Positions 17,701 to 43,602 of a stretch of DNA of 49,673 nt are shown here, piece after piece (position 1 is the stretch's first letter; each line of letters opens with the position of its first letter). The notes beneath the pieces were generated by a model. That model was not told the DNA's origin. It ran no database searches and saw only the letters and a program-made list of their open reading frames with translations. The DNA lies in IMG/VR virus record IMGVR_UViG_2778261214_000022, positions 1 through 49,673 of that record; one strand, 5' to 3'. A program made the position numbers and the translations under genes. This DNA comes from a virus. Its lineage: Duplodnaviria; Heunggongvirae; Uroviricota; Caudoviricetes.

Positions 17701-17776
<76 letters not shown>

Positions 17777-17779
17777 TAT

Positions 17780-17851
<72 letters not shown>

Positions 17852-37984: not shown

Positions 37985-38247
37985 CAACGTTAATTCCTTT
38001 TAAACCTGACGGGCGAGGCCCGTTTCAGTTCACGGCCAGAATTGGAGAATATGAAACATTCGCCCGCGTTCCGTTTAATCTGTATGCAAATCGTTACTAC
38101 TTGGAACTGAAAGACAGTTCTGGCGACGTGATTGTGTACATGCCGTTGATCGCGTCACCTGACAGTTACGACATCAATCTGGCGCTGCCTTGCTCACCGG
38201 GGAAACTTGTTTTTCGCGAAAGTACGAATCAGTTTGAGGTTTCGTAA
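37981..38247 (+). CDS. Small tail protein
   Basis: 88 aa, ATGA coupling. Confidence 0.5.
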   Translation: MTTLIPFKPDGRGPFQFTARIGEYETFARVPFNLYANRYYLELKDSSGDVIVYMPLIASPDSYDINLALPCSPGKLVFRESTNQFEVS

Positions 38248-39254
38248 TGCGTTATTACCGACTGGAAATTATTAATCCTAAAACAGGCAAGCCGCCAGTG
38301 GATAGCAATGGAAAACCCATTGGACCTTTTGATACCAGTGAAACACCAGGATGTGGGTTGCATGTTGAATTTGACTTTGAAGTAACCGGCCTGGATGTAG
38401 TCTGTTCGGGCACGATGCTGACGATCTATGGATTACCAATTGACATGCTGAAGCAAAGCGTAAGCTTGCAGGGTTGTCTGGTCCGTATGAAAGCAGGCTT
38501 TGTTCAGGGGTTACCACTGGCAAATAAGGATCAACAGGGGGAGGTAATCTATGGTGAAATTTATCTGGCCTATGCCAACTGGATCGGCACGAACCAGACT
38601 TTAAACCTGGTAATAAATCCAAGCATACGCAAAACCGATGACGGTAAACCTTTTTCAATTGAGGGGCAGGGGGAAGCAGGCGAAAGGGTTGGCGATGTTT
38701 TAGTCCGCGCTTTGCAAAAAGCATATCCCAATAAATTGATTGATTGCACAGTCAGCGACAACCTAGTTTTGCCAGAGCCGTGGACGGGTAAATATACAGA
38801 GATTGGTTCTCTGGCAATGGTCGTAAAAAACGCCTCTATTGCGATGATGCGTAATGAAAGGTATAGCGGAATCGCCATCAGTATTCTTTCCGACAGAATA
38901 CGAATCTACGATAACGCATCGGCAAAGTGGGGTGAGCCAAAAACAATTCATGCCCATGAACTGGTCGGGCAGCCGACATGGGTAGCGCCGTTTACCGTCA
39001 GCTTCAAATGCCCGATGAGGGGCGATATCAGATGTGGTGATGTGGTTAATTTGCCGGAGGGGCTTTATTCGGGCGCCGCGTCGATTGTGATGGCTAATAC
39101 AATGGCTCCTGGCGTTATCTCCAAAAACTCGACCACGTTTACCGGGAAATTTCTTGTGAAATCGGTCAGACACATTGGTTCGTATCTGACAGCCGATGGC
39201 GATGCCTGGGTGACGGTATTCGAGGCATATGCTGAGAACTGGGCGAGGGTGTAA
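38247..39254 (+). CDS. Baseplate hub-like protein
   Basis: 335 aa, TAATG coupling. Confidence 0.5.
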   Translation: MRYYRLEIINPKTGKPPVDSNGKPIGPFDTSETPGCGLHVEFDFEVTGLDVVCSGTMLTIYGLPIDMLKQSVSLQGCLVRMKAGFVQGLPLANKDQQGEVIYGEIYLAYANWIGTNQTLNLVINPSIRKTDDGKPFSIEGQGEAGERVGDVLVRALQKAYPNKLIDCTVSDNLVLPEPWTGKYTEIGSLAMVVKNASIAMMRNERYSGIAISILSDRIRIYDNASAKWGEPKTIHAHELVGQPTWVAPFTVSFKCPMRGDIRCGDVVNLPEGLYSGAASIVMANTMAPGVISKNSTTFTGKFLVKSVRHIGSYLTADGDAWVTVFEAYAENWARV

Positions 39255-40214: not shown

Positions 40215-40562
40215 ATGAGAACATGGGGCCGCGTCAACGACGCGAACGGCAACAAAAAATGGGTTGCAGTAGAATCTGACACCAACGGTGATTTCTCCTA
40301 CGGCTGGCTGACGACGCTCATTCAGACGTTAAAGCTGGGGTTGGGGGAGTCGCCGTTTTACGCGAATTACGGCATTCCAGCGCAGCAGTGCATCGTGCAG
40401 CAGATTTACCCGGATTACTATGTGAACATGGTTCAGCAACAGTTTGCCGGGTATTTTGCATCATTGGCAATTTCAAAGGTAGATGGGGCAGAGAACCCCA
40501 CCTATAACATCGATGTTGTGTTTTTTAATGGGACCAGTTATCGGACGCAGGTTCCGGTTTGA
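40215..40562 (+). CDS. Hypothetical protein
   Basis: 115 aa from Met17; possibly a baseplate component or cargo. Confidence 0.55.
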   Translation: MRTWGRVNDANGNKKWVAVESDTNGDFSYGWLTTLIQTLKLGLGESPFYANYGIPAQQCIVQQIYPDYYVNMVQQQFAGYFASLAISKVDGAENPTYNIDVVFFNGTSYRTQVPV

Positions 40563-41101
40563 GGCAAGTTTTCGGGCATCAGTTGGGCCAGTGGCGTATT
40601 AAGAAGTTCATCGCGTGGCATGACAATCCATCCACTTTTGCGTAGTAAGTGAATTGCCCATTCTGTGGTGATAACTGAGCCTGATTTGTGGTGCTCAATG
40701 TGGGTAACCGATCCGTTTCTGACGCGCATGATGATGTCAACATTCAGAGGGGATTGTGTGCTGGTAGTTTCTTCGCGCAGCTTCTTCTCGCACTCGATGA
40801 AGTATCGGCGGATCTGGCGGCCTTTTTCGTTGCGTTCGACCATTGCCAGCTCTTTGGCGGTATCTAGGGTGAGGTGGTAGTCCTTGCGGTTGTGGCCTCC
40901 CCGGCCTTTTGCTTCCCGAATTTGGGAAGCAATCACATAGTCCTGATTTTCTACGAATTCATACTCGCTAAGTCGCTCGGTGATCCAAGTAGCAAAGCGC
41001 TTACCTATTTCGAGAAAGGCGTGCAGATCGCGAGCATTACAGAGAAGGATGGTTTCGTTTGAGACTGTTCCGTTGAAAACGGGGATCAGTTGGGTTGTCA
41101 T
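40538..41101 (-). CDS. AntA-type antirepressor-like protein
   Basis: 187 aa from internal Met with GAGGT RBS; N-terminal antirepressor-like region (ARDLHAFLEIGKRFATWITERLSEYEFVENQDYV ... LTLDTAKELAMVERNEKGRQIRRYF). Confidence 0.7.
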   Translation of the reverse strand: MTTQLIPVFNGTVSNETILLCNARDLHAFLEIGKRFATWITERLSEYEFVENQDYVIASQIREAKGRGGHNRKDYHLTLDTAKELAMVERNEKGRQIRRYFIECEKKLREETTSTQSPLNVDIIMRVRNGSVTHIEHHKSGSVITTEWAIHLLRKSGWIVMPRDELLNTPLAQLMPENLPQTGTCVR

Positions 41102-41434
41102 GATGACCTCTGTTTGTTTTCTTCGAATTACCACTATCTGAGTGGTGCCAGGAGGTTCGAAACGGCACAAACAAAGCCGCGGACTTATTCCCCTTTCGGG
41201 TGTTGTATTCGTCGCCCTCCCGACATTGATCGGGGATGTGACCGCACATGGTGCCATCACTAAATAGTAGGCATAAAAAATCCAACACTGACGGGGTTGG
41301 TTGTGACCGTGTTTGTTGAGGTTTCGACGCCTCATGCACATAATCATACTCAATAGCTCATGGATGTAAAGTCTGATTTGAATAGAGAAAAACCGTTGAT
41401 AAAATCCGCATGAACATTTGATAATGAGGTGATT

Positions 41435-41824
41435 ATGTCGGTAAGTATAAAAATTGCACTCCCTTTATTTACAATTTTATTCGTCTCTTGGTGTGCGATT
41501 GGTACGCCAATTGAAAAATCAGAAAGGCTCATTACTAATCAAGATGTTTCTTTAAGCGAAGAACAACGGCAATTGCTTCAGCATATGAGAAATGAAATGA
41601 TTGTAACAGATCAACTATCAGAATCGTGTCGCTTGGTGAGTGAAGGAAAGGAAAAAGCGGCTTTAACAAAACTCCAAAGTATAGAATGGAGCAATACGGG
41701 GTTAAAAATTTCCAAAAATGGCGTTCATAATGACGGTATTATTGAATACTTTAAGAAAAGACTGCAATTAGGTAGCGAAGGATGTGATGTTTTTACCCAA
41801 GATCTTATTCGTGACGTATATTAA
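41435..41824 (+). CDS. Secreted hypothetical protein
   Basis: 129 aa; hydrophobic signal-like N-terminus; GAGGTGA RBS; AT-rich. Confidence 0.6.
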   Translation: MSVSIKIALPLFTILFVSWCAIGTPIEKSERLITNQDVSLSEEQRQLLQHMRNEMIVTDQLSESCRLVSEGKEKAALTKLQSIEWSNTGLKISKNGVHNDGIIEYFKKRLQLGSEGCDVFTQDLIRDVY

Positions 41825-41828
41825 AAAC

Positions 41829-41857
41829 AGCCCGCGTTCAGCGGGTTGTTTTTTTTT
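41829..41857. terminator. Bidirectional intrinsic terminator between convergent genes
   Basis: cccgc-gttca-gcggg followed by T-run, A-run upstream. Confidence 0.7.
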
Positions 41858-41861
41858 GAGG

Positions 41862-42338
41862 TTACTTGTAATTACCTATTGTGCCACTGATTTCGCATGA
41901 ATACTTACTGAATTCAGTAGGTACAAATTCAACGGAAATAATATCCCCTACTTTTAATGGTCTTGAATCGGACATTCTTATTTCATACTTTAATTCTGGA
42001 TTTTTGAAATCAACCGCAGATAATCTTTGGTTTGATAGTGAATTTACTTTAACTTTTGTTTTATACCAATGCTTGTCTAGATTTGAATCAAAAAATATCT
42101 TTGCGGAATCATCAGTGCTAAACTGATCGCAGATTTCGGAAACTATTTTGTCGCTTTTAACGACCGCTGTCTTATAAGATGATGATTCATTTTTAATATC
42201 TTCATCGGAAGGTGATGAAAAATGGCCAATTAAATAAAGTATAAAGACAATTCCAATTAATGTTCCACAGCCACCATTATTCCTTCCGCTTGATACAGAA
42301 ATACCAGAAAGACCTTTTTTGTTGAAATAGAACCGCAT
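41862..42338 (-). CDS. Membrane-anchored hypothetical protein
   Basis: 158 aa; AAGGAG RBS 5 nt before ATG; N-terminal TM segment; AT-rich codon usage. Confidence 0.65.
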   Translation of the reverse strand: MRFYFNKKGLSGISVSSGRNNGGCGTLIGIVFILYLIGHFSSPSDEDIKNESSSYKTAVVKSDKIVSEICDQFSTDDSAKIFFDSNLDKHWYKTKVKVNSLSNQRLSAVDFKNPELKYEIRMSDSRPLKVGDIISVEFVPTEFSKYSCEISGTIGNYK

Positions 42339-42375: not shown

Positions 42376-43602
42376 ATGTCAGAAATACCAATTACTATGA
42401 CCAGTGCGGGTGCGCAGCCTACGCCACCCAATGATTTGCTCGCAAATCTTATCACCAGAGTTGCTGAAAAAGTACCTGGATATACAGCCAACCTTCCGGC
42501 GGGACTTATTACAGACCTTGCCAGCACGGCAGTCGGGGCGCTGGCATTAATAGACCAGGCGCGGGTTGATCTTATTAACTCCGTAAGCCCATACGGCGCG
42601 AATATTCCGTTACTGATGCAACTCGGAAACATTTATGGAGCACAGAAGGGATTAAGTACAAATACGGCGGTATACGTGGTGTTTGAGGCGTTGCCGGGGT
42701 TTGGTATCCCTAAAGGATTTGTTGTCGGTGACGGCAACTACCAGTATGCAGTTTCCCGCGATACGGTGGTACCGGAAAGCGGGCAGACTGAGCCAGTCTA
42801 CTGTGTGGCCACAACGTCAGGCTCATGGGCTGTACCGGAAGGAACCGTAACGCAGGTCATTACATCGGTACCCAAAGATCAGCCTGTAAAATGCACGAAC
42901 CTTACCGCAGGTATGCCCGGTCAGGAGGCGCAGACGTGGGCATCATACCGCGCCGAAGTCATGGAGTCCGGCATGTTTGGTGTGCAGGGAACACCGGATT
43001 GCTTTAAAGCGATGCTCAAATCAGTAAGCGGTGTGCGCGAAAACCTGATTTCTTTCCGGCAGTCGTCGCTGGGGAAATGGGTTGCGGTTGTTGGTGGCGG
43101 TGATCCGTATGATGTGGCTTATGCGATTTACAAATCTGTACCGGATATTTCGAAACTGACCAACGATGTTAGCAATCTGTCCGGTGCGGCAGTGGAAAAA
43201 CGCACGGTTTCAATAACCGTTTCGCCGGACGTTTATCAGGTGCCTTTCGTTATCCCGTCATCACAAAATGTTATGGTGCTAATCACCTGGAACACGGTGT
43301 CTGATGATTATGTTGATCCGGCGGGTATTGCTATGGCTGTGCAGCAAAACGTTGCTGATTACATCAATTCAATTGAAGTCGGACACCCGATAAATCTGCT
43401 GCGAATCCAGGATATTTTTACCAGCTCCGTAAAATTGCTGGTTGATGCGACGTTGATCTCAACAATCAGTGTGAGCATTGGTATTAACGGCCATATTGTT
43501 CTTCCGGCAAAAGACACAAGCCTGGTTTATGGCGATACCTATTCCTATTTTTCGACGGTGGCATCACAGGTTCAGGTCAACAAGTATGCAATATCTGACT
43601 GA
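42376..43602 (+). CDS. Baseplate J-like protein
   Basis: 408 aa, followed by I-like and tail fiber genes. Confidence 0.65.
   Translation: MSEIPITMTSAGAQPTPPNDLLANLITRVAEKVPGYTANLPAGLITDLASTAVGALALIDQARVDLINSVSPYGANIPLLMQLGNIYGAQKGLSTNTAVYVVFEALPGFGIPKGFVVGDGNYQYAVSRDTVVPESGQTEPVYCVATTSGSWAVPEGTVTQVITSVPKDQPVKCTNLTAGMPGQEAQTWASYRAEVMESGMFGVQGTPDCFKAMLKSVSGVRENLISFRQSSLGKWVAVVGGGDPYDVAYAIYKSVPDISKLTNDVSNLSGAAVEKRTVSITVSPDVYQVPFVIPSSQNVMVLITWNTVSDDYVDPAGIAMAVQQNVADYINSIEVGHPINLLRIQDIFTSSVKLLVDATLISTISVSIGINGHIVLPAKDTSLVYGDTYSYFSTVASQVQVNKYAISD

Follow-up and report, generated by a model that had tools for sequence, protein, structure and literature searches.

The choice of a prophage between silence and induction rests with antirepressors, which are also able to induce neighbouring prophages. 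How the synthesis of such a protein may be held in check is the question raised by the leader of an antirepressor-like gene (ant) in a caudoviricete virus sequence, IMG/VR record IMGVR_UViG_2778261214_000022 (positions 1–49,673; the term window refers to this whole stretch of 49,673 nucleotides). The gene (40538–41101, minus strand; ATG at 41101–41099, stop codon at 40538–40540) encodes a 187-aa antirepressor-like protein of the AntA/AntB family, which matches Pfam PF08346 AntA (E = 1.3e-26) and anti-repressor families of PHROG (best E = 2e-74). A first-pass annotation had noted about 250 nt of structured leader (41102–41350) upstream of ant and had proposed that a regulator analogous to c4 of phage P1 or sar of phage P22 may reside there. 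This leader harbours an RNA of the Rfam family sRNA-Xcc1 (RF02221) with two recognition sequences complementary to boxes at the ant ribosome-binding site (RBS), and among relatives the recognition sequences, these boxes and a second, upstream set of boxes change together. We consider it probable that the leader represents an immunity I (immI)-type, P1 c4-like RNA control module for ant.

An sRNA-Xcc1-family RNA in the ant leader

The RF02221 match (41139–41224) was obtained on the minus strand only, i.e., the strand of ant, covers model positions 1–87 of 87 with 70.9 bits (gathering threshold 53; E = 6.7e-13), and ends 37 nt before the ant ATG. No other Rfam family matched the leader at E up to 1. 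The three-way junction that defines the family, composed of helices P1, P2 with its conserved AUACAA...ACCCGNAAGGGGAA core, and P3, is present in the window RNA. Helix P1 is formed by 41224–41216 (5' strand) and 41155–41147 (3' strand) and is followed by ACCA (41146–41143). P2 is a long hairpin with the invariant core AUACAACACCCGAAAGGGGAA (41208–41188), a near-invariant internal loop and a GNRA loop. P3 is a short hairpin (stem 41180–41176 with 41166–41162), the 9-nt loop of which, UUUGUUUGU (41167–41175), constitutes recognition element b. The 6–7-nt junction strand leading back into P1 (J3/1; UUUCGAA, 41156–41162) constitutes recognition element a. Folded alone, the RNA forms P1 and P3 (-29.9 kcal/mol), and G-U pairs in both helices are compatible with a minus-strand transcript only.

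Directly 3' of the RNA, a further hairpin (P4; CCACU-CAGAU-AGUGG, 41131–41145) opens with a CC that belongs to the RCC(A) motif at the RNA edge. A CC-initiated hairpin is found at this position in most relatives, its loop bearing an a-type box in some of them (L035, L042 and L013).

The structure proposed in the first-pass annotation is thus real, in that a leader of about 235 nt contains this Rfam match and folds better than most shuffled sequences: a 271-nt stretch yielded a z-score of -2.17, with 4 of 200 shuffles folding equally well. From promoter to ATG the leader is conserved in 12 close relatives, and the variable islands are exactly the recognition sequences and the target boxes.

Complementarity to the ant ribosome-binding site

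The RBS region of ant carries one counterpart for each recognition element on the same strand. The a-type target box UUCGAA (41122–41127) pairs with J3/1 (41162–41156; -5.6 kcal/mol) and co-varies with it. The b-type target box ACAAACAGAG (41117–41108) overlaps the Shine-Dalgarno (SD) sequence AGAGG (41111–41107), and its segment ACAAACAGA (41117–41109) pairs with the P3 loop (41175–41167; -8.3 kcal/mol). The composite TCGAA-N(3-12)-ACAAACA occurs three times in the window, against 0.11 occurrences expected, and each time within this leader: two of them are minus-strand target sites, and the remaining one is their complement within the RNA. In the minimum-energy fold of the whole leader, a long-range helix with the RBS boxes replaces P1 and P3. 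Since the isolated RNA forms P1 and P3, two competing folds exist.

Co-variation among relatives

Loci sharing the invariant core were collected from viral contigs (120) and from bacterial genome contigs (120); as the search pattern forces that core, its conservation is not independently measured by this collection. An SD-preceded open reading frame (ORF) follows P1 in 91 of the 106 viral loci with enough flank, and 89 of these 91 start 34–79 nt downstream. The P3 loops are hypervariable, with 57 distinct sequences among 67 viral loci, and each was therefore compared with its own start region and with those of all other loci. Duplex energies were obtained by the same best-match search for true and control pairs and were assessed by 10,000 permutations, with the tests limited to distinct recognition sequences (67 viral and 57 further genome loops); the loci are not phylogenetically independent. 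Energies were used in place of column-wise pair counts, because gaps introduced by MAFFT shift the pairing register by one column even among the 12 close relatives.

Against the 25 nt preceding the start codon, P3 loops of the 67 viral loci reached -7.73 kcal/mol with their own sequence and -3.60 kcal/mol with swapped ones, the corresponding values for the 57 new genome loci being -7.54 and -4.49 kcal/mol. For J3/1 and the downstream flank, own versus swapped energies amounted to -4.26 versus -2.27 kcal/mol (viral) and -3.38 versus -2.24 kcal/mol (genome). In each comparison, 0 of 10,000 permutations reached the mean of the own pairs. The own target ranked first or second of 67 in 40 viral loci, and at least 85 % of the loop could be placed in one helix with the own pre-start 25 nt for 82 % of the 67 distinct loops, compared to 7.9 % upon swapping. 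The folding and covariance analysis with homologous regions that had been recommended as a check has, in this form, revealed co-variation of the boxes with the RNA across about 125 distinct relatives.

Individual relatives amount to a natural experiment. In L021, Ant is 98 % identical to that of the window, yet all three b sites have changed together (ACUUGUA, UACAAGA and UACAAG versus UUUGUUUGU, ACAAACAGA and ACAAACA in the window). The specificity of the window is found again in L065 and L072, where the proteins encoded downstream are longer (269 and 302 aa) and unrelated.

Promoter and upstream duplicate boxes

A sigma-70-like promoter predicted to drive a common transcript of leader and ant is located at 41343–41370 (minus strand). 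Its -35 hexamer TTTACA (41370–41365) and -10 hexamer TATGAT (41348–41343) are separated by a 16-nt spacer, match the consensus at 10 of 12 positions, and align with TTGAC and -10 hexamers in 11 related leaders, the flanks of which diverge. This promoter puts the predicted transcript start near 41336, from which the leader length of about 235 nt derives.

Between the predicted start and the RNA, both target boxes are present a second time. The 5' hairpin GAGG-CGUCGAAA-CCUC (41318–41333) exposes the upstream a-type box in its loop (GUCGAAAC, 41328–41321), which resembles a1 of phage P1 and is complementary to J3/1 (-5.2 kcal/mol). This loop changes with J3/1, as in L004 (UCAGAA with UUCUGA) and L037 (CUCAAAA with UUUUGAG). 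Adjacent to the hairpin lies the b1-like upstream b-type box (41307–41316), composed of ACAAACAC (41316–41309) followed by GG and complementary to the P3 loop (-6.3 kcal/mol). Tested against the own upstream 152 nt, the loops of the two sets reached -7.26 versus -5.25 kcal/mol and -9.01 versus -6.90 kcal/mol upon swapping (0 of 10,000 permutations each). The upstream boxes change together with the RNA in L004, L015, L021, L027 and L037, and both are found family-wide among sRNA-Xcc1 loci; in relatives, the upstream b box is followed by GCGG or CGG, like b1 of phage P1.

Next in the transcript is a terminator-like hairpin, CCAAC-CCCGUCAGU-GUUGG, with the U-run AUUUUUUAU (41273–41300). Apart from the sRNA-Xcc1 motif, no part of the leader is as highly conserved. 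A terminator scan of the leader found nothing, this hairpin having been missed because its 9-nt loop breaks the loop-length rule. Judged from its sequence, it is a possible end of a short, IsrK-like decoy RNA that would have to be read through for the RNA and ant to be reached. In 37 diverse relatives, which were chosen because a U-run of 5 or more follows their b box and were read by inspection, a hairpin that presents the a box in its loop and a b box with GCGG precede a hairpin with such a U-run and the loop motif CCCGNNAG. By inspection, this succession of a-box hairpin, b box and U-run hairpin, which is that of IsrK and c4-a1b1, is shared by the window, the 12 close and the 37 diverse relatives. 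The consensus fold of the MAFFT-aligned upstream elements (36 sequences) retained 6 pairs only and is uninformative, because the variable boxes shift the register.

Two further properties of this region were observed. The loop of the U-run hairpin (41295–41287, and the same place in the 37 relatives) carries a conserved motif, (A/G)CCCG(U/A)(C/U)AG, and in many relatives the arrangement GCGG-N4-CCGC-loop-GCGG permits two alternative hairpins, as is also the case in phage P1. For the interval between the upstream boxes and the RNA, the minimum-energy fold predicts a spacer hairpin, GUGAUGGCAC-CAU-GUGCGGUCAC (41238–41260), the pairing of which is kept in L021 by two-sided changes (GUGGUUGCA / UGCAACCAC).

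Proposed mode of action

In the proposed module, transcription from a single promoter would yield, in this order, a 5' decoy segment (two box copies, hairpin and U-run), the RNA and the ant message. The 86-nt three-way-junction RNA would expose the P3 loop and J3/1, and these would pair with the real copies of both boxes in the ant ribosome-binding region, at or just 5' of the SD sequence, thereby blocking translation of Ant by analogy to c4. The RNA probably also exists as a discrete, stable small RNA (sRNA) that could act in trans on ant messages of matching specificity, newly made or incoming; its ends are c4-like, and c4 is processed by RNase P. The upstream decoy would compete for the recognition elements, be it within the nascent transcript (in cis) or in the form of a short, terminated IsrK-type RNA. 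Its effect could consist in masking the RNA on nascent transcripts, in titration or in altered termination.

Comparison with c4, IsrK and sar

The annotated record of phage P1 lists on one strand promoters with C1 operator, a1, b1, the 77-nt c4, a2, b2, icd and ant, and describes b2 as the site where C4 represses icd-ant translation. The order in the window is the same: promoter, a1- and b1-like boxes, hairpin with U-run, RNA, a2- and b2-like boxes at the SD sequence, and antirepressor operon. Reading the P1 sequence against the Rfam C4 structure, c4 likewise forms a three-way junction, the recognition sequences of which occupy the same two places as in the window RNA, b the hairpin-2 loop and a the J3/1 strand. 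In phage P1, a1 occupies the loop of a hairpin, CGG and then a GCGG...CCGC...GCGG-U-run segment covered by the isrK model come after b1, and b2 (GUUAGUGA + GG) forms the SD sequence of icd. Each of these features has its counterpart in the window, including the two downstream boxes on the same strand with the distal one overlapping the SD sequence, as well as the duplicate boxes between promoter and RNA.

The likeness extends to the edges of the RNA. c4 begins after UAU (UAU/G, the slash denoting the edge) and ends with GCC-ACC, so that it shares a U/G 5' edge and an RCC 3' edge with the window RNA (CAAU/G and GGC-ACCA). Of 148 distinct motifs, 110 have the RCC edge, and within these 110, G at +1 is found in 109 and U at -1 in 74. 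U(-1), G(+1) and RCCA are preferences of bacterial RNase P (PMC4919922), and a paper listed in the same review identifies the c4 precursor as an RNase P substrate (PMC4919922). In 4 of the 148 motifs (L052, L060 and L110 among them), a U-run directly follows helix P1 in place of RCC. Helix P1 therefore looks like an intrinsic terminator in L052, L060 and L110, and this form may represent an alternative route to the 3' end of a small RNA.

Several differences from c4 and phage P1 are evident. Helix P1 comprises 9–11 bp here and about 17 bp in c4, the long P2 carries a GNRA loop and an invariant internal loop where its c4 counterpart consists of 5 bp and UUCG, and the P4 hairpin is located between the RNA and the a box. 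Regulation concerns ant itself, without an icd-like coupling ORF, and the module is an opposite-strand insert in a baseplate cluster and not part of an immunity region. The window RNA is probably c4-like in its working and is a member of RF02221, not of the C4 family. Membership in the C4 clan (CL00128; RF01695, RF03163) is not claimed, since the family models miss this leader, eight relatives and the upstream element of L010.

With respect to mode of action, c4 blocks ant translation at the RBS (PMC12197685; PMC8198154), and IsrK in its short form works in trans on the antirepressor message and switches on its translation (PMC4825925). IsrK of Gifsy-1 (RF01394, upstream of anrP) resembles the leader studied here in that a short 5' RNA is terminated and read-through produces the antirepressor message. 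The segment of phage P1 covered by the isrK model (a1/b1 and terminator) corresponds in position to 41336–41273 of the window. In contrast, IsrK pairs with orf45 and activates by translational coupling, and no such ORF exists in the window leader. A review reports Gifsy-1 orf45 to be conserved in nucleotides but variable in amino acids, with IsrK pairing to about 30 nt of it. In phage P1, the isrK model sits just upstream of c4; the Gifsy-1 "orf45" could conceivably be a c4-type RNA.

The second precedent invoked in the first-pass annotation, sar of phage P22, likewise works through RNA-RNA pairing, which takes place at the start region and controls translation of the antirepressor (PMC12197685). 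sar is, however, encoded on the opposite strand and fully complementary, whereas the window RNA is located upstream on the same strand and offers short, discontinuous complementarity. Plus-strand promoter-like sites in the gap (41316–41344 with 9 of 12 matches, 41378–41405 and 41396–41425) all point away from the ant start, including 41316–41344, the sole one in the leader, and no opposite-strand promoter with an RNA overlapping the ant start was found. Rfam match and G-U pairs are likewise specific for the minus strand. The idea of a c4- or sar-like regulator is hence supported for c4, based on the same-strand RNA, the co-varying RBS complementarity and the box order of P1 immI, and not supported for sar.

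Alternative explanations

Several observations weigh against a c4-like module. The Rfam models C4 (RF01695), c4-a1b1 (RF03163) and isrK (RF01394) did not match 40900–41500 at E up to 1 or eight related loci at E up to 0.1, the C4-clan and isrK models did not match the upstream element of L010 at E up to 10, and the sRNA-Xcc1 model did not match P1 c4; the c4-a1b1 and isrK models both match phage P1 at the expected place. As the covariance models cross-detect in neither direction, homology of the sRNA-Xcc1-type RNA with c4 is unproven. The b pairing covers only part of the SD sequence, and pairing of all loop bases might be sterically strained as long as the P3 stem stays intact. In P2, the internal loop (AAUACAA / GAAU) and the GNRA loop have no counterpart in c4 and are left unexplained by the pairing model. 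Copies from Xanthomonas and Rhodanobacter (L127, L131, L133, L159, L187 and similar ones) show no obvious match between loop and RBS; they may be symE-type integron cassettes, perhaps with a different mechanism. A further subgroup (L005, L008, L033, L034, L074 and L103) lacks an RBS target and possesses instead, after the motif, a promoter-like site (TTGAC...TATTCT) embedded in the palindrome GCTAGCC...GGCTAGC, plus a GGGGGCGACCCC hairpin. To judge from its title, a paper by Chen et al. (2011) reportedly describes sRNA-Xcc1 as trans-acting and controlled by HrpG/HrpX. Finally, transcription start, read-through of the U-run and processing at this locus are predictions from sequence.

The foremost competitor is a leader that acts in cis only, riboswitch-like or protein-binding, in which binding of a ligand or protein to the three-way junction with its invariant P2 internal loop would determine if P3 loop and J3/1 sequester the RBS region within the same molecule, and a separate sRNA would not exist. 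The direct position of the element in the 5' untranslated region, with neither promoter nor strong terminator between RNA and ant, accords with such a sensor, as do the two competing folds and the near-invariance across phyla of the core AAUACAA...ACCCGNAAGGGGAAU, which pairing does not account for; that the downstream genes constitute one functional class and not one family would fit a shared signal. A sensor would, however, have no need of an additional upstream set of both boxes that co-varies and is closed by a hairpin and U-run. The RCC edge with its flanking G and U, or the U-run after P1 in the 4 motifs mentioned, points to a discrete RNA end, and a discrete sRNA-Xcc1 RNA of about 88 nt was observed in Xanthomonas by Northern blot and rapid amplification of cDNA ends (PMC2996969). 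The layout, moreover, equals that of P1 immI, and no ligand or binding protein is known. We therefore regard the sensor as unlikely compared to the c4-like module.

Alternatively, the RNA could be an independent trans-acting prophage sRNA directed at host or other phage genes, its position before ant being incidental. Rfam lists sRNA-Xcc1 without clan and catalogues it as a trans-acting sRNA, the title of Chen et al. is said to point the same way, and target predictions have been published for the Xylella homologues. In enterohaemorrhagic Escherichia coli O157:H7 EDL933, the annotated sRNA-Xcc1 interval is abundant with low ribosome coverage (PMC5331693). Incidental position is, however, hard to reconcile with hypervariable recognition sequences that fit their own downstream RBS far better than those of other loci, with the conserved gene association and start-codon spacing, and with a composite target confined to this leader, which render this explanation distinctly improbable.

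Finally, the element could encode a conserved small protein, or act at the DNA level (attC-like or as operator repeats) with its RNA structure irrelevant. Of 91 distinct motifs, 51 contain an ATG at the 5' edge of helix P1, the sole recurrent ATG of the leader, a 13-codon ORF (MSGGRRIQHPKGE) recurs in E. coli-type leaders, and family members are known from integron cassettes. This ATG is absent from the other 40 motifs, its frames relative to the invariant core split 25/22/4, the resulting ORFs range from 3 to 335 codons, and indels of 1–2 nt separate closely related leaders, so that the small-protein reading, which the first-pass annotation had named as contrary to its proposal, was rejected and its statement that the leader lacks a credible ORF was borne out. 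Given in addition that co-variation preserves pairing and not codons, and that G-U pairs and Rfam match are strand-specific, neither version deserves more than marginal credence.

Associated genes and distribution

Among 71 non-redundant products encoded downstream of the motif, 47 belong to six N-terminal domain families (Bro-N, 12; KilA-N, 8; Rha, 7; AntA, 7; ORF6N, 7; P22_AR_N, 6), and P22_AR_C is present in 15; products outside these families are small proteins without Pfam match. The domains represent different folds of one functional class, the phage antirepressor-like regulators, which makes autoregulation by the protein unlikely and a portable RNA gate the likelier explanation. Copies of sRNA-Xcc1 have been noted upstream of an ORF6N gene in APSE phages and, in integron cassettes of Xanthomonas, upstream of the toxin gene symE.

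A literature search retrieved no paper that links sRNA-Xcc1 to c4, to a downstream RBS target or to a decoy; the 2011 sRNA-Xcc1 paper, which may contain a prior description, lay outside its coverage. With the case for and against about evenly balanced, the entire sRNA-Xcc1 family, the function of which has been unclear since 2010, would constitute a second and far more widespread c4-type scaffold. This would be a portable cassette of decoy, antisense RNA and RBS target, the specificity of which could be reset by joint changes in three short boxes; temperate phages and also integron cassettes across the Proteobacteria would employ it to gate genes whose products are toxic or induce prophages (Ant, KilA-N, Bro-N, ORF6N, Rha, possibly SymE). 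An extra input, such as a protein or ligand, could be provided for by the invariant P2 module, which c4 lacks.

If this is correct, a catalogued but functionally obscure RNA family would acquire a concrete, testable role and, in every genome, a defined target, and the principle of P1 c4, so far that of a few plasmid-prophages, would apply to phages and cassettes in large number across the Proteobacteria, including Stx-converting phages with tandem modules. The three co-varying boxes would provide natural orthogonal pairs of RNA repressor and target for prediction of immunity groups and for engineering, and annotators could mark the downstream gene as RNA-gated instead of listing an orphan sRNA.

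Tandem arrangements were observed in L003 (Stx phage P13771; 1571–1660 and 2110–2195) and also in L069 and L075, each module possessing its own loop, decoy and RBS target and preceding a separate AntA-type gene. For Xylella, five sRNA-Xcc1 copies at a spacing of about 380 bp have been published. The small RNA 24B_1 of an Stx phage, a proposed repressor of an ant gene, is unrelated and originates from a different locus (lom-vb_24B_43). Exact core matches were also encountered in metagenome-assembled genomes labelled Acidobacteriota, Bacteroidota, Planctomycetota and Synechococcus (L128, L135, L148, L156, L191 and others), which could reflect real spread or contamination.

Genomic context

The ant gene is located on the opposite strand within a baseplate gene cluster, between baseplate hub (38247–39254) and baseplate wedge (42376–43602) genes, and hence appears to be an inserted accessory gene that possesses a separate control region. 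The intergenic gap to the ATG (41435) of the divergent plus-strand neighbour amounts to 333 nt. Two small ORFs, 41435–41824 (plus strand, 129 aa, hydrophobic N-terminus) and 41862–42338 (minus strand, 158 aa), adjoin the ant module within the baseplate cluster. Neither has a PHROG match, and a GC-rich hairpin with T-run (41831–41845) lies between them. The two ORFs and ant resemble an accessory insert of three genes.

Elsewhere in the window, Rfam matches at 463–607, 2169–2347 and 17701–17851 correspond to the SraC/RyeA and SdsR/RyeB pair, the RalA antitoxin RNA and two tRNA genes, which suggests a Rac-SA53-like prophage adjoining the ryeA/sdsR locus.

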